Below are positions 3,246 through 46,236 of a stretch of DNA of 64,000 bases, piece after piece. Made by a program: the position numbers and the translations under genes. The notes beneath the pieces were generated by a model. That model made no database searches and was not told the origin of the DNA. It saw only the letters and a program-made list of their open reading frames with translations. Origin of the DNA: a virus (Duplodnaviria > Heunggongvirae > Uroviricota > Caudoviricetes); the IMG/VR virus record IMGVR_UViG_2565956614_000003, one strand, 5' to 3'. Every line of letters starts with the position of its first letter. The first letter of the stretch is position 1.

Positions 3246-5165
3246 ATGGAACAGTTCAATATCAATAAAGGGGTGACGATCAAGCCTGGGCTTGACGTGC
3301 TTCCCCCGCCAGTGACTGATGATGAATATCGCGCATTAATGGCCGGTGAGGACCGCTATCTGATGACGGAATCCAACACCCTGGAGGAAATCGAGGCTAC
3401 GTTCTTCTATGACACGCCGATCCACTGGTGTGCTACGGATTTACTGGAGGCGATTAGTTCTACTCGTTTGCAGTTACACCGGACCATGCAGGCATTTGTC
3501 CGGGCATTGAACCAGAAGCTGAATGGTACCGGAATCTCTGCGGGGAGTGATAAAACGGGGGAGGTGGCCCAGAGCGGCGCGCGCGCGATCGGCGGTGCTG
3601 AAATTGGCCGGGCACGTAACGTTAACGGGCTGCCGGTCCTGCCAGCCATTATTCCGCTCAGTGATGGTCAGACTATCAGCATTCTGTTTCATAGCCCGAC
3701 AGCGGAAAACCGGATCACCAATAGCGATACGCTGGTTGCTTTCCAGTTCTTACTGAATAAAAAAGACGTTACTCACACCGTTGCTCCGATGAGTGGACGT
3801 GATATGACGCTGGCGCAGGTCACCATGAAACTTGCCAACCTTGCAGAGAAAAACTCGGCAAAATTCCAGCGTGCGCAGAAGAAGAAAAAAGCCCTGGTTG
3901 ATGAAATAACCCAACTACAGGCTGACAGTGACCAGAAAGAGGATGCCATGAGCGACCTCGCGGATCAGGTGGCAGCGGTAGAAGGGCAGAAGGTAGATCT
4001 GGAGCAGAAAATTAACGCTGTTGCATCGGAAGCGGATTCTCTTTATGAAGAGAATGAGCGTTTGCAGACGGAGATTGATCAGCTCAATCGCACAGGTGGG
4101 CGCGATACCATTGATCCAGCGGGGATGACTGGTGGGCACTCGCGCGCGCTGACGGATCGCCTTGCCAGTATCAAAAATCGTATGCATATGAACGGGGAAG
4201 TGACGCTCAGTAATGGAGCATCAATGAAGCAATTCATTGGGGGCGGCGAAGGGTATATCCAGTTAACCGATCCGGATGGCAGCGTATACATGATCAAGGC
4301 TAAATCCATACAGGGTGTGGACATGGCAGATGCGATCGGCAAGCTGTTTAAAGCCTATAAAGCGGGTAATGTATCGGAATACCTGGTCCAACCAGAAGAA
4401 CATAAACCGGAAAACGTCGAACCTGAACCAGCGGAGGATACCGGTAGCTCTTCGCCTGAACCAGAAGTCTCTGTAGGTGCATATCGATATGCCCTGCAAA
4501 TGCGTCCGGCGGCCCCTGGCGCAATACCTGAAGGTAACAAAGCAATTCTGCCGCGCCCTGATGAAGGTGACCCGTATTATGAATATGCACGCTACGGCAT
4601 TGCTACTTACGATACCCCGCTTTCTGATCAGCAAATGAGTGAGTACGACCTGAAGTTATTGCCTCGCGAGGATTCTTTCGACTTCCTGGCGAAGACACTT
4701 ACTAATGGTCCGTTTGGCAAATATGCACAAAAAGCTCTGGAGCTGGCCACCAGCTCACCAGACGAGTTCCGCGTAATGCTGAAAACTCAGTTTCAAAAAA
4801 CTTTCCCCAATATTGCGTTTCCTGGGGGCGCTGGCACCGAGAAAATGGTGCAGAGCATGATCAATGCATTGCAGGCCGAAGTCGGTGAGATTACTCAGCC
4901 AGAACCGGCCCCGGCACAGCCTGATGAAACGGTTAGCGAAGCAGATGCAGAGGCTAATAAAGCCATTGAATATCTCAATAACGTGATGGATATACAAAGC
5001 ACTGACATGGCGGAGATCCGTAACGCCCGGGGCAATGTCCGGGAAGCGATTGCAGCCCTTCAGGCTGCCGGACGTTTTGAGGAAAACGAAGAGCTGGTTA
5101 ACGGCGCAGCTCGCCACCTGGCTGATCTGTTGGTAGCAATCCAGAAAGCGGGGGTAGCGGCATGA
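3246..5165 (+). CDS. darA: DarA, internal head protein of the defence-against-restriction system
   Basis: 639 aa, coiled-coil central region; position and size match P1 darA. Confidence 0.8.
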   Translation: MEQFNINKGVTIKPGLDVLPPPVTDDEYRALMAGEDRYLMTESNTLEEIEATFFYDTPIHWCATDLLEAISSTRLQLHRTMQAFVRALNQKLNGTGISAGSDKTGEVAQSGARAIGGAEIGRARNVNGLPVLPAIIPLSDGQTISILFHSPTAENRITNSDTLVAFQFLLNKKDVTHTVAPMSGRDMTLAQVTMKLANLAEKNSAKFQRAQKKKKALVDEITQLQADSDQKEDAMSDLADQVAAVEGQKVDLEQKINAVASEADSLYEENERLQTEIDQLNRTGGRDTIDPAGMTGGHSRALTDRLASIKNRMHMNGEVTLSNGASMKQFIGGGEGYIQLTDPDGSVYMIKAKSIQGVDMADAIGKLFKAYKAGNVSEYLVQPEEHKPENVEPEPAEDTGSSSPEPEVSVGAYRYALQMRPAAPGAIPEGNKAILPRPDEGDPYYEYARYGIATYDTPLSDQQMSEYDLKLLPREDSFDFLAKTLTNGPFGKYAQKALELATSSPDEFRVMLKTQFQKTFPNIAFPGGAGTEKMVQSMINALQAEVGEITQPEPAPAQPDETVSEADAEANKAIEYLNNVMDIQSTDMAEIRNARGNVREAIAALQAAGRFEENEELVNGAARHLADLLVAIQKAGVAA

Positions 5166-11029: not shown

Positions 11030-11046
11030 AAATTAATTAGAGCAAT
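11030..11046 (-). promoter_or_regulatory. C1 repressor operator-like site (16/17 match to ATTGCTCTAATAAATTT) upstream of ssb
   Basis: aaattaattagagcaat in ssb/lyz divergent region. Confidence 0.6.
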
Positions 11047-29396: not shown

Positions 29397-30428
29397 CTAA
29401 TCACCATCTTCCAGCAGGCGCACCATTGCCCCCGTTTCACTATCCAGATTACGGATATAGTTCATGACAATATTTACGTTGGTCCAGCCACCAGCTTGCA
29501 TGATCTCCGGTATTGAAACTCCGGCGCGGGCCATATCTCGCGCGGCTCCGACACGGGCACTGTGTCCAGACCAGGCCAGGTACCTCTGGCCAGAGTCATC
29601 CTTAGCCCCGTAAATCAATCGGTGAGTTGCTTCAAAAATCCCTTCCAGGGCGCGAGTTGATAGCTGGCTGGTGGCAGATGGCGCGGCAACACCATTTTTT
29701 CTGACACGGCAAAACAAGTAGTTATTCGGATCATCAGCCACACCAGAGACAGAAATCCATCGCTCAACCAGTTTAGTTACCCCCAGACTAAGTGCCTTCT
29801 CTACACCAGCGGTGCTAACCAGCGTTTTCGTTCTGCCAATATGGATTAACATTCTCCCACCGTCAGTACGTGAGATATCTTTAACTCTGATCCTAGAAAT
29901 TTCGGCTATACGTAACAGGGTGTTATAAGCAATCCCCAGAAATGCCAGATTACGTATATCCTGGCAGCGATCGCTATTTTCCATGAGTGAACGAACCTGG
30001 TCGAAATCAGTGCGTTCGAACGCCAGCGCCTGTTTTGCACGCTCACCGGCATCAACGTTTTCTTTTCGGATCCGTCGCATGACCAGTGAAACAGCATTGC
30101 TGTCACTTGGTCGTGGCAGCCCGGACCGACGATGAAGCATATTTAGCTGGCCCAAATGTTGCTGGATAGTTTTCACTGCCAGACCGCGCGCCTGAAGATA
30201 TAGAAGATAATCGCGAACATCTTCAGGTTCTGCGGGAAACCACTTCCGGTTATTCAACTTGCACCATGCCGCCCACGACCGGCAAACGGACAGAAGCATT
30301 TTCCAGGTATGCTCAGAAAACGCCTGGCGATCCCTGAACATGTCCATCAGGTTCTTGCGAACCTCATCACTTGTTGCATCGACCGGTAATGCAGGCAAAT
30401 TTTGGTGTACGGTCAGTAAATTAGACAT
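29397..30428 (-). CDS. cre: Cre tyrosine site-specific recombinase
   Basis: 343 aa; MSNLLTVHQNLPALPVDATSDEVRKNLMDMFRDRQAFSEHTWKMLLSVCRSWAAWCKL... appears essentially identical to P1 Cre; catalytic R-H-R-Y residues present. Confidence 0.98.
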   Translation of the reverse strand: MSNLLTVHQNLPALPVDATSDEVRKNLMDMFRDRQAFSEHTWKMLLSVCRSWAAWCKLNNRKWFPAEPEDVRDYLLYLQARGLAVKTIQQHLGQLNMLHRRSGLPRPSDSNAVSLVMRRIRKENVDAGERAKQALAFERTDFDQVRSLMENSDRCQDIRNLAFLGIAYNTLLRIAEISRIRVKDISRTDGGRMLIHIGRTKTLVSTAGVEKALSLGVTKLVERWISVSGVADDPNNYLFCRVRKNGVAAPSATSQLSTRALEGIFEATHRLIYGAKDDSGQRYLAWSGHSARVGAARDMARAGVSIPEIMQAGGWTNVNIVMNYIRNLDSETGAMVRLLEDGD

Positions 30429-30969: not shown

Positions 30970-30986
30970 ATTGCTCTAATAAATTA
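30970..30986 (+). promoter_or_regulatory. C1 operator-like site (16/17) overlapping a TTGACA -35-like hexamer upstream of coi/c1
   Basis: ttgaca-attgctctaataaatta. Confidence 0.6.
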
Positions 30987-31224: not shown

Positions 31225-31434
31225 ATGGCTTTCATTCAACCAACCATCGACGACGTTAGACATTGCTCTAACGCTTTATCTGTAGACCCTGCCGAAACCG
31301 ACGCTGCCCGCGCCATTGCTGAACACTACTCAAAGATATCCAATCAGGAGTACCGCATCACCCAAGACGACCTGGATGACCTCACTGACACAATCGAATA
31401 TCTCATGGCAACTAACCAGTTAGACTCACAATAA
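31225..31434 (+). CDS. coi: Coi, C1 inactivator
   Basis: 69 aa immediately upstream of c1, downstream of operator cluster; synteny. Confidence 0.7.
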   Translation: MAFIQPTIDDVRHCSNALSVDPAETDAARAIAEHYSKISNQEYRITQDDLDDLTDTIEYLMATNQLDSQ

Positions 31435-31544: not shown

Positions 31545-32396
31545 ATGATAAATTATGTCTACGGCGAACAACTGTACCAGGAGTTCGTCAGCTTCAGGGA
31601 TCTCTTTCTAAAAAAAGCTGTTGCACGCGCCCAACACGTTGATACAGCCAGCGACGGTCGTCCTGTACGCCCGGTTGTCGTTCTACCGTTCAAAGAAACT
31701 GACAGCATTCAGGCTGAAATTGATAAATGGACTTTAATGGCGCGGGAACTGGAACAGTACCCAGACCTCAATATCCCAAAGACTATTTTATATCCAGTGC
31801 CTAACATCCTTCGCGGTGTGCGCAAGGTTACAACTTATCAGACAGAAGCTGTGAACAGCGTCAACATGACCGCTGGCCGCATTATTCATCTGATTGATAA
31901 GGACATTCGCATCCAAAAAAGCGCGGGGATCAATGAGCACAGTGCGAAATACATAGAGAACCTGGAAGCAACAAAAGAGCTAATGAGGCAGTACCCGGAG
32001 GATGAAAAATTCCGTATGCGCGTACACGGCTTTAGCGAAACAATGCTGCGCGTCCACTACATTTCCAGTAGCCCTAACTACAATGATGGTAAATCAGTTA
32101 GTTACCATGTGCCACTGTGTGGCGTGTTTATCTGCGATGAAACTCTCCGTGATGGAATTATCATCAACGGTGAATTCGAAAAAGCAAAATTTAGCCTTTA
32201 TGACTCCATAGAACCGATCATCTGCGACCGCTGGCCGCAAGCAAAAATATATCGCCTGGCAGATATTGAAAATGTAAAAAAACAAATTGCCATCACTCGC
32301 GAAGAGAAAAAGGTTAAGTCAGCCGCATCAGTTACGCGCAGCCGTAAAACCAAGAAGGGGCAGCCAGTAAACTACAACCCCGAAAGCGCGCAATAA
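31545..32396 (+). CDS. c1: C1 primary immunity repressor
   Basis: 283 aa; position in the cre - operators - coi - c1 arrangement; C1-type operator 17-mers across the window. Confidence 0.85.
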   Translation: MINYVYGEQLYQEFVSFRDLFLKKAVARAQHVDTASDGRPVRPVVVLPFKETDSIQAEIDKWTLMARELEQYPDLNIPKTILYPVPNILRGVRKVTTYQTEAVNSVNMTAGRIIHLIDKDIRIQKSAGINEHSAKYIENLEATKELMRQYPEDEKFRMRVHGFSETMLRVHYISSSPNYNDGKSVSYHVPLCGVFICDETLRDGIIINGEFEKAKFSLYDSIEPIICDRWPQAKIYRLADIENVKKQIAITREEKKVKSAASVTRSRKTKKGQPVNYNPESAQ

Positions 32397-32425
32397 ATTA
32401 TGCCCGGCATCAACCGGGCATTCTT
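32395..32425. terminator. Bidirectional terminator-like hairpin between converging c1 and antirepressor-like gene (tgcccgg-catcaa-ccgggca)
   Basis: 7-bp stem with A-rich 5' and T-rich 3' flanks in a 32-bp convergent gap. Confidence 0.5.
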
Positions 32426-32428
32426 CCA

Positions 32429-33544
32429 TTATTCAGCTGCCACCGGTTTTAACAAGCCAGCATCGAGCAGTTTACGCGTCAACCACTGCTGGCCTTTACC
32501 CGTTAATTGAGGCGTCAACCGTATCTGGTAGCCATCTTCATCATCCAGCACCACTTCTTTCACCGTGAAATACCCCGCGTTGATGTACTGCTGGAACGGC
32601 ACATTTTTACGTCCACCGGACGCTATCAGGATGCCGTTCTCCCGTAACCAGACAAACAGCGCGTTTTGCTTAAGTCCAACAACCTTTGCAAAATTCCCAA
32701 TCAGGATCCCTTTAGCTACTGATACCCGGTCGGCAAAATCGACTTTAGGAGCGGCGGCCACCAGCTGCTGATTTAGCTGGTGGGCTTTCTGTTCCAGAAG
32801 CTGCTTTTGTTCAGCCAGTTCGGCAGCCAGGCGCAGAGCTTCTGGAAGCGTCTGGGGGATTGCAACCGGTTGCTGTTCTTTTTGCCGGAAGTAGCTGTCT
32901 TCCAGTTTTTCAAAGAATGCCCATGCCTGATCGGTTTCGAGCATTTTAGCGTGGCGGGCTGCGCCGCGTTCCGTCCAGAGGATGAGTGAGCGGGCTTTAG
33001 GAGAGATAGGATTTTGTGAGTTACTTAAAGTCACCCGCAAATTGTTCAAATCATCTCCAATAACTTTATAGAAATGCTTGCCTTCACAAAAACGTTCAGC
33101 ATTACGGGAAAAGTTCTTCTTGATGTTATCCGCATCTGTCCCATACCCCTTAGCAAGGATCTTAGTTGTCACTACACGCACTCCCTGCCACTCTAGAACG
33201 GGAATTTCATCCGGCTGACTTTGAACAACCACCAGTTCTGATTCCTGAACTAAAGGTGTATTAATTTTTTCAGATTTAACGTTAGTAGCTTTCATTCTGT
33301 GTGCCTCCTTGCGTGTTTCGGCTGCGACGGTTGCGTAATTCAGATGCCCCTGTTCGAGCAGGTATTCACGGATATCAGACAGCAGGATACGGTGAACAGC
33401 GTTCTTGTCCTTTCTCCGGTAAAGTTGTTTGGTGATCATGAAGTAGTTGGCAATAACGCCTGGTATATCCCTGGTACTGATACAGGCAGTGTGCTGTTCA
33501 ATTGCCTCGATCATCTCTTCACGGGTGACTAATGACGTTCTCAT
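32429..33544 (-). CDS. Antirepressor-like protein (ORF6N-like central domain plus C-terminal KilAC/Ant domain)
   Basis: 371 aa; central LEWQGVRVVTTKILAKGYG...FCEGKHFYKV and C-terminal DFADRVSVAKGILIGNFAKVVGLKQNALFVWLRENGIL typical of phage antirepressors; strong RBS aggaggg. Confidence 0.6.
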   Translation of the reverse strand: MRTSLVTREEMIEAIEQHTACISTRDIPGVIANYFMITKQLYRRKDKNAVHRILLSDIREYLLEQGHLNYATVAAETRKEAHRMKATNVKSEKINTPLVQESELVVVQSQPDEIPVLEWQGVRVVTTKILAKGYGTDADNIKKNFSRNAERFCEGKHFYKVIGDDLNNLRVTLSNSQNPISPKARSLILWTERGAARHAKMLETDQAWAFFEKLEDSYFRQKEQQPVAIPQTLPEALRLAAELAEQKQLLEQKAHQLNQQLVAAAPKVDFADRVSVAKGILIGNFAKVVGLKQNALFVWLRENGILIASGGRKNVPFQQYINAGYFTVKEVVLDDEDGYQIRLTPQLTGKGQQWLTRKLLDAGLLKPVAAE

Positions 33545-33926
33545 AGTCCCTCCTGAGCAGAAGCGTTAACAGGGAGGCACCAGTAACTGAGAGAATTGCG
33601 TGAATCAGTGGAAAAACGGGCAGAGAAAATACATGGGGCGTCAGGAAGCTGAGAGCGGGCCTCATCTTCTGTCGGTGCAATAACGAAGTGATAGTGACGT
33701 TTTTGGCAGGAGTAAAAGCGCCAGATAAATTCAGGATGAGTTGGGGTAGGGATAGTAGCCATATTGGCAGCCTCCTTAGACGTTGGTATGTAACCACCGC
33801 AGAAGAGACCAATCTTGCTGGCGGTGGACTGTACGGAGTTGGCCTTACTGGCGTCCAAGGTAACCAGCCTACCCGAAGGTAGCCCCATACAGCCCACCAT
33901 TGTAGAGGTGTGCGTGTACGCCGATA

Positions 33927-33950
33927 CAAAAAAAGACGCGAGCGGCGTCT
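33927..33950 (-). terminator. Rho-independent terminator on minus strand about 150 bp downstream of pacB (agacgc-cgctc-gcgtct + T7)
   Basis: 6-bp stem, 5-nt loop, T7 on minus strand; flanked by additional cgatac/gtatcg complementarity. Confidence 0.5.
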
Positions 33951-34080
33951 GTATCGCCTTAGACTTAAGCGGGAGGCCAATCCCGGCACCCGTTTTAATG
34001 AGGTGCCTGATAAGCATAAACCGAAAATGCCTCAAGGCGCAAGAGGTCAGGTTCAATGTAACATCGGCAGTTAAAAAACA

Positions 34081-34097
34081 CAATTTATTAGAGCAAA
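34081..34097 (-). promoter_or_regulatory. C1 operator-like site (15/17) immediately downstream of pacB stop
   Basis: caatttattagagcaaa. Confidence 0.5.
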
Positions 34098-34100
34098 TAT

Positions 34101-35585
34101 TCATTCATTAAGCCATGCCAGAGCTTCATCAACCTGCGCTTCGTCTTCGACGCTAAGCACTTCATCCTGGGGAACATAATCCGCCAGCATAGCGAAACAA
34201 TATGTATCCCAATGGTCTGGTGAGTGCAGGTTGATTTTTTTCTTCATATCCTCCTTACTCATCACCTTCCATTGACCTGCGGAGTTAATCCCTACAGGGA
34301 TTTTCGACGCTTCCTCAATAGTTTCATTACCCTTATCCAGTCTCATACGACCAGATTTTACGGCCTCTGCGGCTTGAACGTTGGCATAAGCACGTTTATC
34401 AAAGTACAGGCTCTTATCTTCACGGCTATGCATCTTTTTACCCCAGCGTATACGCTGTACGGTAATACCATAATACTCGTACATCAGATCCGCCGTTGCT
34501 TTACCCAGCCCATCGCCGTCTATCGCTATGGTGATATTTGGGAATCGCTCAGGATTACATTCTGCGAAAATTTTGGCGGCAAGCTGCGTTTCTGTAACGT
34601 CTGTGTATTCCAGCATTCGATAGTTGATTACACGGCGTTTATTTCGCTGGCCGGACACCATCATGATATTGATAACGGACTTATCCCGTCCCGTACCACC
34701 AGCAACGTCCACACATGCAAGCCAGCCCCATCCTTTTGCAATCTTGACTTTCCGCCGCGTTGCACGTTCAACCTCATCACGCCCAAGAAGGAAGCCATCC
34801 TGTGATTTAGGGAATAGGCCGCGTACCTTAATCATGTACATAGGGTTATCACGCCCGCCGTACTCCGCCAGCTTCATTTTGATAAATGCTGGCGTTACCA
34901 GCGGTGATTCCTCACTGTTAAGCGTGATCGCCGTATAAACGCCATCAGGGTTACCAGGACGCTTGGCCAGTTTATGGTGAGTATCGTAGAAATAGCCGCT
35001 TGGGCGTGTAGGCTGTGACAGTAATAAGATGCGGTTATCCTGTCCGGTAAGAGCACCGGTGATGATACCGAAAGCTCTATCACTGACACCGGAGGCTTCA
35101 TCGATAATATACAGAAGATGATCTGCGTGTTCACCGGCGAGAGCTTCTTCACTTCCCAGACGAAAGCCCTTCGGTACTACAGTCCATACACCTTTACCAG
35201 TAACCTCATAGAAAGCGGTTTCTGTCAGAACAAAATAATCAGCAAGCCATGGAAAACGGCTGGTGGCAGTAGCCCAGTTTATCTTGATGTACTTGAATAT
35301 ACCGGTCATTACCTGCTGAATTTTGTTCGCAACGATAATGGCGCGGGCACCGGGATACATGATTATGAACAACATGATCATGATAGAAGTCATGTCTGAT
35401 TTCCCGGTACCGTGACCAGACGAAACAGATGTCTTGCTACCCTGTTCCTGCACAGACTCAATAATCAGATCCTGCTGCCAGGTAGGTGTTTTGCCGAACA
35501 AAACATCAGCGGCCGCAATCCAGTCATAACGATATAGCGCCACCAGCTCGCGCCAACGTGGATCCGTTACGCAACTTCTGGCCAT
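34101..35585 (-). CDS. pacB: PacB, terminase large subunit
   Basis: 494 aa; ATPase/nuclease-type terminase organisation; start overlaps pacA stop; synteny with P1 pacA-pacB. Confidence 0.85.
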
Positions 35586-36778
35586 TAATCATCATCCCCG
35601 TATAGCTTGCGGGTAACTTCTTCGTCTTCCTCCTCGTCTTCGTCCAGGTCTTGTTCCAGCCATGGTTCGTTTGATACACCTTCAGTATCAACATCTCCAT
35701 AACCGCCTGTATCAACGATATCGGCGATTTCTTCCCTACGTTGCTCAATCCACAATGCGGCATCGGCGCGGCGGTTGGCGGCCCGTTCTCGCGCAACTTT
35801 GTCCAGATCTTCAAGAGAAGGGCCACCGACGGCAGTTTGCCTTTCCTCATCATCGGTATTGGTCTTAGGAGCACGCAGATCGGCTTTGATTTGCTCCAGC
35901 ATCAGGGGCGGCACTTTCCCGCCATGCGCCTCGATGAATTCAGCTGCTTCCAGCACTGACCAGTTATTTTCACGCTTTCGTTCGTATGCCAGCTTAACAA
36001 TGCCAGCTTGCCCCATAGACAAAGCGTGCTTTTCCGCCTCCCGGCTTTCTTTTCGATAGTTATTCCGGATGCTGTAAATGGTGTTGATCAGGCTGCTTAT
36101 CTGCGCGGAACAGCTGTTTAGCATGCTCGCGATACGGTATTCAGGCGGAGTACCTTCATCATCTTCTTTTTGCTGATCGCGCATTTCCTGAACCAAGCGA
36201 ATACACGTATCCCTGGCGTTCTCCAGCATAAGGAGATGAGAGAGAGACTTTTCCAGAAGAGTGGTTTCCAGAACATCAGCCCCGGACCGACGCAACATAG
36301 CGCGCGCGGCCTTCCGCGCTTCAACGTTATCTATCAGGTAATCGCCAGCTTCGAATTCAAAGCGTTCACCATCATCATCCAGGGTGTCGCGTTCCAGGCG
36401 ATCACGTAAGGTCCGGTGGGCGCGGGTGATCACGTCATGATCATCAGAACGATCATTTATGCGCTTATTCTGGCGCTTCGCGTTCTCGACTGCGGCACTG
36501 ACAACAGCATTAACTCTTTGTTTTTCAGCCATTTCAGCCACAATGTGATCACCTGCACGTTGATCATTAGCGTGATCAATGATCATGCTTTTTAGTGGTT
36601 TTCTGACAGGCTTATTTGGCTTACGGCTGTCCGCTGTTCCGGTGTCTTCTTTGAATGCACGGAGATAACGACGTGCGGTGTTTGGGTTGAGATTAAACTC
36701 GGCGGCATATTGTGCGATGGTGTAACCACCATCTCGCGCCAGGCGAGCAAAATTCTTCTTGTGATCGTCCCAGGTCAC
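35585..36778 (-). CDS. pacA: PacA, terminase small/pac-recognition subunit (contains pac site)
   Basis: 397 aa; N-terminal HTH-like region, acidic C-terminus; pac hexamer clusters lie in its 5' part. Confidence 0.85.
36426..36585. other. pac packaging site: two clusters of TGATCA/GATC hexamers (3 + 4) about 110 bp apart within pacA
   Basis: Hexamers at 36426, 36437, 36449 and 36546, 36561, 36573, 36580; each carries a Dam GATC. Confidence 0.75.
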
Positions 36779-46219: not shown

Positions 46220-46236
46220 AGATTTATTAGAGCAAT
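46220..46236 (-). promoter_or_regulatory. C1 operator-like site (16/17)
   Basis: agatttattagagcaat, about 180 bp upstream of the 45313-46041 gene. Confidence 0.55.

Follow-up and report, generated by a model that had tools for sequence, protein, structure and literature searches.

Between the genes pacB and c1 of a P1-type phage-plasmid (IMG/VR record IMGVR_UViG_2565956614_000003) lies a block of about 1.7 kb that carries an antirepressor gene, ant, absent from this position in P1. We analyzed the block within a 64,000-nucleotide stretch of the record (the window), which is in reversed orientation relative to the P1 reference. In an alignment with P1, the stop codons of pacB (34101-35585, minus strand; stop codon 34101-34103) and c1 (31545-32396, plus strand; NCBIfam phage_rep_C1, E 1.6e-183) are 24 bp apart in P1 and 1,704 bp apart in the window, with homology ending at 34103 on the pacB side and restarting at 32395 on the c1 side. 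The 1,704-bp block therefore exactly occupies the pacB-c1 intergenic spacer. Read along the minus strand, it has the layout annotated for the P1 immunity operon immI, i.e., an operator, promoters, a leader with sites a1 and b1, the antisense RNA C4, sites a2 and b2, icd, and ant1/ant2, and it is probably a second, self-contained immunity module of the immI type that shares its gene order and predicted logic with P1.

Genes and RNA elements in the pacB-c1 block

The ant gene (32429-33544, minus strand) encodes a 371-amino acid (aa) antirepressor of the Ant1 type. The first-pass annotation had proposed an antirepressor with ORF6N and KilAC domains that converges on the 3' end of c1, and both points were confirmed: a hidden Markov model search recovered Pfam ORF6N (residues 116-201, E 8.7e-19) and ANT/KilAC (residues 259-360, E 5.9e-31), and the protein matched phrog_63, 'anti-repressor Ant', over its full length (E 3e-134). 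Identity to P1 Ant1 is 55% overall, with approximately 65% across the N-terminal ~85 aa, approximately 90% across the C-terminal ~140 aa, and a replaced middle. Inside the gene, in frame, is a conserved Ant2-type start (33293-33295, minus strand) that follows an AAGGAGG at 33304-33310; this AAGGAGG-N8-ATG arrangement falls at the position of P1 ant2, in a near-identical context (AAGGAGGCACACAGAATG in the window versus AAGGAGGCACATAGAATG in P1). Two proteins, Ant1 and Ant2, are predicted from the nested starts.

Directly upstream is an icd-like gene of 73 aa (33541-33762, minus strand; NCBIfam NF033153, E 2.6e-13; phrog_1426, E 1.2e-45), whose stop codon shares an ATGA with the start codon of ant, as it does in P1. 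Its product and P1 Icd share 80% identity over 66 aa (DNA identity, ~70%), and it is preceded by a strong ribosome-binding site, AAGGAGG, at 33771-33777. The Prokaryotic Genome Annotation Pipeline (PGAP) likewise annotates an Icd-like protein and an antirepressor in relatives. A small hydrophobic, icd-like open reading frame (ORF) over the ant start had been suspected at first pass; its icd-like nature and its overlap were borne out, but 'hydrophobic' was off. The accompanying statement that ~550 bp upstream of ant held no credible coding sequence was wrong for icd and holds for the ~340-bp leader (33763-34100).

The leader contains two RNA genes, which were identified by scanning the whole window against Rfam at gathering thresholds. 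The first is an IsrK-family leader RNA (33929-34006, minus strand; RF01394, 60.8 bits versus a gathering score of 50, model positions 1-77), overlapped by a weak c4-a1b1 match (20.5 bits). It shows the three hairpins of that family, the last of them a terminator. A terminator scan independently placed an intrinsic terminator here (33927-33950, minus strand; AGACGC-CGCTC-GCGTC and a T7 run), with the stem at 33950-33934 followed by TTTTTTT at the 3' end of the isrK match, in agreement with the strong minus-strand terminator noted at first pass. The second RNA gene, and the only match to its family in the 64 kb, is a C4-family antisense RNA (33817-33904, minus strand; RF01695, 75.9 bits versus a gathering score of 45, E 4.7e-13), which aligns with the full-length model. 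The earlier suggestion that the leader might encode an antisense or processed regulatory RNA comparable to P1 C4 is thereby upheld. Further, six C4 variants show compensatory changes in 12 of the 28 stem base pairs, and the C4 fold with its 3' ...CCACC tail is conserved. When P1 immI itself was searched, Rfam returned the same arrangement (C4, 68.8 bits; c4-a1b1, 51 bits; isrK, 35 bits, which is below threshold).

In the predicted C4 fold, element b' (CCUUGGACG, 33852-33860) occupies the loop of hairpin 2 and element a' (AGGCCAA, 33839-33845) the single-stranded stretch after it. Each has two complementary sites, all of them on the minus strand. Sites a1 (TTGGCCT, 33974-33980) and b1 (GTCTAAGG, 33957-33964) lie within the IsrK-like RNA, and sites a2 (TTGGTCT, 33806-33812) and b2 (CGTCTAAGG, 33774-33782) lie downstream of C4, where b2 overlaps the icd Shine-Dalgarno sequence. 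The offsets, order, and spacing of the four sites are P1-like, and the cognate C4-target duplex of the window has a computed energy of -22.7 kcal/mol.

At the upstream end, abutting the pacB stop codon as reported at first pass, is the C1 operator-like 17-mer TTTGCTCTAATAAATTG (34081-34097, minus strand), which agrees with the C1 operator consensus at 15 of 17 positions. Over 26 nt around the site, identity to P1 48142-48166, the Oc4/Op51-P51a (i.e., P2c4) region, is 92%. The site is the homologue of P1 Oc4/Op51, is predicted to bind C1, and was unchanged in every variant aligned. Window-wide, 14 such 17-mers with three or fewer mismatches were found versus 0.33 expected by chance, and they are therefore genuine operator-family sites. 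Scattered over 11030-62431 (e.g., 62415-62431, which is exact, 30970-30986, 46220-46236, and 11030-11046), they represent the usual C1 regulon of P1-type phages.

Two putative promoters lie below the operator. One, the analogue of P51a/P2c4 and presumptively C1 repressible (34055-34083, minus strand), has a -35 element TTGTGT (34083-34078) that overlaps the operator, a 17-nt spacer, and a -10 element TACATT (34060-34055), and it is placed relative to the operator as P1 P2c4 is. The other, a candidate constitutive promoter analogous to P51b/P1c4 (34013-34042, minus strand), consists of TTGCGC (34042-34037), an 18-nt spacer, and TATGCT (34018-34013). Its predicted start (~34006) falls on the first position of the Rfam isrK model, and its region is nearly invariant across the variants.

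Two long upstream ORFs, of 187 and 156 aa, were rejected as genes for an Ash-family protein, given that their Pfam and PHROG matches fall on translated isrK and C4 and their frames are unconserved. The 187-aa conceptual ORF, the 3' third of which is the icd-like gene, matches Pfam Phage_ASH (PF10554, E 2.3e-11), and its residues 35-126 are the translated isrK and C4 genes. In relatives with 91-99% identity across the module, this frame is interrupted by 1-nt indels (673R5 and 1332KP) or stops (RCS47, JL22, and pTZ20_1P), i.e., it is not a conserved protein-coding ORF, and PGAP treats it as a pseudogene or a 39-aa fragment. Matches to translated isrK/C4 (window 33727-34002, minus strand) were also obtained for the PGAP 'ash family protein' and for PHROG 29966, 6928, 3960, 821, and 995 ('transcriptional regulator/repressor'), and Ash or regulator calls occur in related loci L007 (3891-4208) and L013/L014 (1685-1804). 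Where this leader has been called as an 'Ash family protein' or a 'transcriptional regulator', the calls are thus most likely translated RNA genes, and the Ash and PHROG regulator families may have been built partly on such translations.

Covarying alleles of C4 and its targets

Comparison of modules from the same pacB-c1 site resolved distinct specificity alleles. Allele W, that of the window, combines a' AGGCCAA with b' CCUUGGAC and is shared by 673R5, a plasmid of Escherichia coli CH427, and four other plasmids. Allele R (a' GUCUCAA, b' CCUUUGAC) is carried by RCS47; allele J (a' GUCUCAA, b' CCUUUUGC) by JL22 and p06-3542, and also by the second module of phage D6; and allele T (a' GUUCCAA, b' CCUUUUGC) by pTZ20_1P. 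Within the aligned leaders, the first ~120 nt, which span the operator, the promoter region, and the first IsrK hairpin, are almost invariant, and it is the C4 gene and the four target sites (a1, b1, a2, and b2) that account for most of the differences. A change in C4 is accompanied by matching changes at every one of these sites in each of six specificity sets: W, R, J, T, P1, and the canonical module of the CH427 plasmid.

This pattern was also found in a larger set. When IMG/VR was searched for exact matches to a 32-mer of the invariant leader, 55 loci were recovered, 53 of them with analyzable modules: 27 W, 11 J, 8 T, 6 R, and one new combination that joins a T-type a' to an R-type b', for a minimum of five alleles at the pacB-c1 locus. 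All four cognate sites were present in 52 of the 53 modules, and probes for noncognate a' or b' found sites in only 2 of 372 tests. One IMG/VR record, L152 (IMGVR_UViG_2698536372_000019), gave two leader matches 1,566 bp apart and holds the whole allele-W module in tandem duplicate; the final bases of pacB are duplicated with it, and the end of ant differs in the first copy. This tandem copy is either a real duplication or an assembly artifact.

Such covariation of C4 with its targets is hard to explain without function, and the retention of four matched sites in 52 of 53 loci across five alleles implies ongoing selection. It bears directly on the idea that recombination left the block behind as an inert passenger, the remnant of an immI-like cassette no longer expressed or needed. 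Some observations are compatible with inertness: a strong terminator stands ahead of C4, about half of the P1-like plasmids do without the module, and the pacB-c1 ant is frameshifted or truncated in some relatives (L012, 333-623; L015, 333-1447; L002, 3474-4247 and 2248-3071) in which icd and the RNA genes are intact. However, every part is intact in the window, the C4 stems carry compensatory changes, and Icd is more strongly conserved with respect to P1 at the protein than at the DNA level. Taken with the matched sites, these features leave inertness highly improbable. The broken ant genes reflect either sequencing errors or real decay, as does the broken c1 of the 673R5 record, in which c1 is also split into fragments.

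Computed duplex energies suggest that the window allele is separate in specificity from canonical immI. Cognate duplexes range from -20 to -23 kcal/mol, whereas the two canonical C4s tested (from P1 and from the CH427 plasmid's canonical module) reach only -3.6 to -4.8 kcal/mol on the window targets. A resident canonical C4 should therefore not control the pacB-c1 module. Among the pacB-c1 alleles, J-type C4 pairs with T targets at -20.9 kcal/mol, near its own-target value, via G-U wobbles, whereas the reverse pairing, T-type C4 on J targets, is poor (-14.7 kcal/mol). This modeled asymmetry suggests possible one-way immunity between the two alleles.

Canonical immI and other relatives of the module

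In P1, the immI operon lies between sim and kilA, and the first-pass annotation had left it open whether the pacB-c1 module was extra or relocated. Complete relatives argue for an extra module. RCS47, JL22, and 673R5 each carry a canonical P1 immI beside kilA (88-100% coverage, 94-97% identity) in addition to the pacB-c1 module. The same holds for the closest relative, the 98.8-kb plasmid of E. coli CH427 (99.6% identity over the module), which has two C4 genes, one in a canonical setting (c4-a1b1, icd, ant, kilA) and one in the pacB-c1 copy (isrK). With both modules present in these four relatives, we regard the pacB-c1 module as an addition and reject relocation. That the module might instead be the sole immI of this phage, moved from the kilA/repL neighborhood, would fit the finding of a single C4 in 64 kb and a canonical position outside the window. 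Yet the sim-immI-kilA region lies outside the part of a P1-type genome that the window spans, both modules are present in each of the four complete relatives examined, and at least two ant-like places occur in all 40 plasmids among the matches listed, so that a sole, moved immI is the least probable of the explanations considered here.

The module is widespread. At a coverage of at least 80% it was detected in 281 PLSDB plasmids and in 264 of 5,426 complete E. coli genomes (~5%), and an uninterrupted P1-type pacB-c1 junction was detected in 314 PLSDB plasmids; approximately 280 of approximately 700 P1-type plasmids in PLSDB carry the module. Identity over the module region is 93% for RCS47 and 91.6% for pTZ20_1P.

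The likeness to P1/P7 immI extends from the order of elements to their fine structure: a C4-family RNA with two complementary site pairs, b2 placed over the icd Shine-Dalgarno sequence, a 73-aa Icd joined to ant by ATGA, a nested Ant2 start, a KilAC C terminus, and a related C1 operator-promoter stretch. The P1 record annotates C4 as a repressor of the translation of icd and ant that acts at a2/b2, icd as necessary for the expression of ant, Ant1 and Ant2 as forming a complex with C1, Op51 as controlling c4, and the role of a1/b1 as 'putative'. The pacB-c1 module differs in its location, in its presence on top of the canonical operon in relatives, in the center of Ant, and in a leader that scores higher as isrK than as c4-a1b1. 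Its a'/b' elements (AGGCCAA/CCUUGGAC) and their targets are also unrelated to those of P1 (CUGUCAA/UCACUAAC).

The IsrK-family leader points to a second known system, the isrK locus of the Salmonella prophage Gifsy-1 (Hershko-Shalev et al. 2016; PMC4825925). In that locus, a leaky terminator yields a read-through mRNA that is translationally silent, an ~80-nt RNA (STnc1160) complementary to IsrK is processed from the read-through transcript, and IsrK acts in trans to switch on, at the level of translation, an upstream ORF joined by ATGA to the antirepressor gene anrP, whose output is the antQ operon. The two loci thus share an isrK-family leader with a terminator, an ATGA-coupled pair of short ORF and antirepressor, and an ~80- to 90-nt structured RNA directly downstream whose sequence complements the leader's middle hairpin. 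They differ in that the first ORF of the window is Icd-like and lies downstream of C4, whereas orf45 of Gifsy-1 overlaps STnc1160, and in that the window has a C1 operator and a P1 replicon. The same paper reports that mutations in the middle hairpin of IsrK (G28A and G31A) and in its orf45 partner (C162U and C159U) alter control; by an approximate count on the Rfam consensus, G28 and G31 lie in or beside an a1-like UUGGC loop.

By analogy, the orf45/STnc1160 RNA is probably a C4 homologue. GTDB was scanned for the Gifsy-1 locus with the degenerate isrK pattern CGGGTGCCGGGNTTGNNNNCCCG; Salmonella was absent among the 80 of 119 matches listed, nearly all of which were chance hits in GC-rich genomes and only five of which were enterobacterial. 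Rfam places isrK outside the C4 clan. Nonetheless, isrK was followed by C4 within ~25 nt in four of four loci: L024 (3236-3424, Shigella flexneri), L026 (6273-6461, Izhakiella), L078 (261-450), and L088 (6729-6917, an E. coli chromosome). On the strength of this succession in enterobacterial loci, isrK-family RNAs appear to serve C4 modules in general as the leader that bears a1 and b1.

Elsewhere, the leader is attached to other genes. The Shigella prophage locus L024 (3077-4033, plus strand) has the same leader and first codons (MATI...) fused straight to a Rha-like antirepressor, without icd, and its leader has its own covarying a'/b' set. The leader and start region behave as a portable regulatory cassette ahead of different antirepressor types. 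Phage D6 (L005, ~75.8 kb) shows a subthreshold C4 match (4176-4255, minus strand; 40.2 bits, gathering 45) ~350 nt upstream of its isrK-C4-icd-antirepressor module, and this match may be a tandem or degenerate C4 copy. The CI RNA of phage P4 (seqA/seqB/seqC), compared here by its description in PMC4825925, is likewise a small RNA processed from its own transcript leader with target sites upstream and downstream, but it acts by premature transcription termination of replication genes and has neither icd/ant nor a C1 operator. The passages retrieved from that paper liken IsrK to P4 CI RNA, and term searches for P1 in it returned nothing.

The cassette itself is already on record. Venturini et al. 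(2019; PMC6906374) noted an ant insertion at pacB-c1 in RCS47 and pTZ20_1P, described as 'two short hypothetical orfs and an antirepressor', and a second c4/icd region was reported in a D6-like plasmid (PMC6799933). The RCS47 annotation also names the pacB-c1 gene 'ant'. The RCS47 and pTZ20_1P insertions are the identical cassette at the identical site, with alleles R and T, respectively, rather than the W of the window or the J of JL22 and D6. The passages that term searches retrieved from both papers do not mention the isrK/C4 RNAs, operator, target sites, alleles, or covariation. Our literature search, a weak one in that classical P1 immI work, the D6 genome paper, and most subscription papers were outside its reach, found no account of the RNA genes, operator, targets, alleles, or covariation at pacB-c1, and within the same reach none that equates the isrK family with the a1/b1 leader of C4 modules. 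The most useful new points are the covarying polymorphic alleles, the high prevalence of the module, the link between P1 c4 and IsrK, and the probably spurious Ash and regulator calls.

Additional features of the window are those of a P1-type genome. Around the module lie cre (29397-30428, minus strand), coi (31225-31434, plus strand), and pacA (35585-36778, minus strand). The 32-bp gap between the ant and c1 stop codons contains a hairpin, ATGCCCGG-TTGA-TGCCGGGCAT (32400-32421), recognized from its sequence and as a terminator-like site in the minus-strand scan, and it likely ends transcription in both directions, where the ant and c1 transcripts converge. Three tRNA genes (59524-59596, 61600-61672, and 61678-61749, minus strand) are present as in P1-type genomes, and their counterparts in the CH427 plasmid are annotated as tRNA-Ile, tRNA-Thr, and tRNA-Asn.

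Predicted regulation and immunity of P1-like phage-plasmids

If the module works as its parts suggest, transcription would start at the weak constitutive promoter (~34006) and at the operator-overlapped promoter repressible by C1. Most transcripts would end at the intrinsic terminator and give an IsrK-like RNA of ~78 nt that carries a1 and b1, and those that read through would carry C4, to be excised from the precursor. The processing step is modeled on P1, in which RNase P reportedly excises C4 from the operon transcript. Elements a' (AGGCCAA) and b' (CCUUGGACG) would then pair with a2 and b2 on the same mRNA and mask the icd ribosome-binding site, and without icd translation the overlapped ant would stay unexpressed; in P1, blocked icd translation is said to exert polarity on ant. 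Sites a1 and b1, in cis and on the short RNA, would compete for C4 and so set a threshold. An additional possibility, for which the precedent comes from Gifsy-1 (PMC4825925), is that the short RNA may bind Hfq or activate the downstream ORF in trans.

Where C4 is absent or noncognate, e.g., upon entry into a cell that holds a relative with a different allele, Icd and Ant1/Ant2 would be made, and Ant is predicted to bind and inactivate C1. A lysogen would thus be protected from relatives with the same allele, and a phage with the module would beat C1 immunity wherever the cognate C4 is lacking. The C4 of canonical immI uses recognition sequences to which those of the module are orthogonal, and the module would therefore provide a second, independently variable immunity specificity.

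Several observations weigh against this immI-type interpretation. A consensus promoter scan reported no minus-strand promoter in the leader, and both putative promoters match only 7 of 12 consensus positions; they were therefore assigned from position and P1 homology. The strong terminator precedes C4, such that C4, icd, and ant would all depend on read-through. Three of the four target sites of the window allele pair with C4 via one G-U wobble. Since the window excludes the sim-immI-kilA region, coexistence of the two operons in its own genome is deduced from the relatives. The frameshifted or truncated ant genes indicate that the module is dispensable in at least some lineages. Finally, the center of Ant is an ORF6N domain where P1 Ant1 has an unassigned segment, and with a central third unlike that of P1 Ant, its target could differ from C1.

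This last point supports a variant in which the operon is regulated as described but Ant targets another repressor or pathway, for instance that of resident lambdoid prophages, in a cross-talk or 'moron' function. Fusion of the isrK-C4 leader to unrelated antirepressors (Rha-like in both Shigella L024 and D6 orf82) is consistent with such a role, as is the action of Gifsy-1 AnrP on antQ expression (PMC4825925). However, the strongly conserved Ant termini and the retained Ant2 start tie the protein to P1 Ant, the operon has an Op51-homologous C1 operator, and the loci with exactly the same leader adjoin c1 and occur in P1-like replicons only. We therefore consider a different target unlikely and retain C1 as the predicted one.

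The low copy number of the plasmid, which also carries phd/doc, invites another explanation, namely an addiction or abortive-infection device. C4 would be the antidote to Icd as a cell-division inhibitor, plasmid loss or C4 titration would block division, and Ant would be secondary. Members of the Icd family are annotated as host cell-division inhibitors, the predicted antisense pairing blocks the icd ribosome-binding site directly, and icd survives intact in relatives with a frameshifted or truncated ant. The P1 record, on the other hand, has icd as a coupling ORF required for ant expression, and the device would leave the C1 operator and the Ant1/Ant2 organization unexplained. On balance an addiction function seems very unlikely, and the immI-type module remains the preferred interpretation.

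P1-like phage-plasmids are widespread in Escherichia and Salmonella, often with resistance or virulence cargo, and their coexistence, exclusion, and induction depend on immunity circuits. As a broader proposal, which we hold tentatively and rate somewhat short of probable, these elements may use a two-lock RNA immunity code. It would consist of immI and, in nearly half of them, the second operon at pacB-c1, with at least five co-evolving alleles assembled from interchangeable a and b specificities and with a1/b1 acting as an IsrK-type decoy small RNA that titrates C4. If this is true, the immunity group of a P1-like element would be the product of its c1 type, its immI allele, and its allele at the second locus (immI-2), and the allele set would decide which P1-like plasmids, many with resistance genes, superinfect, induce, or displace one another. 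The decoy role of a1/b1 would also unify the P1 c4 and Salmonella IsrK literatures: if C4 modules have an isrK-family RNA as their a1/b1 leader, experiments on Gifsy-1 and on P1 could be interpreted jointly. The known immunity logic of P1 would be unchanged and extended, and heteroimmunity would have among its determinants a second C4/antirepressor module, orthogonal and polymorphic, of which current typing schemes take no account.

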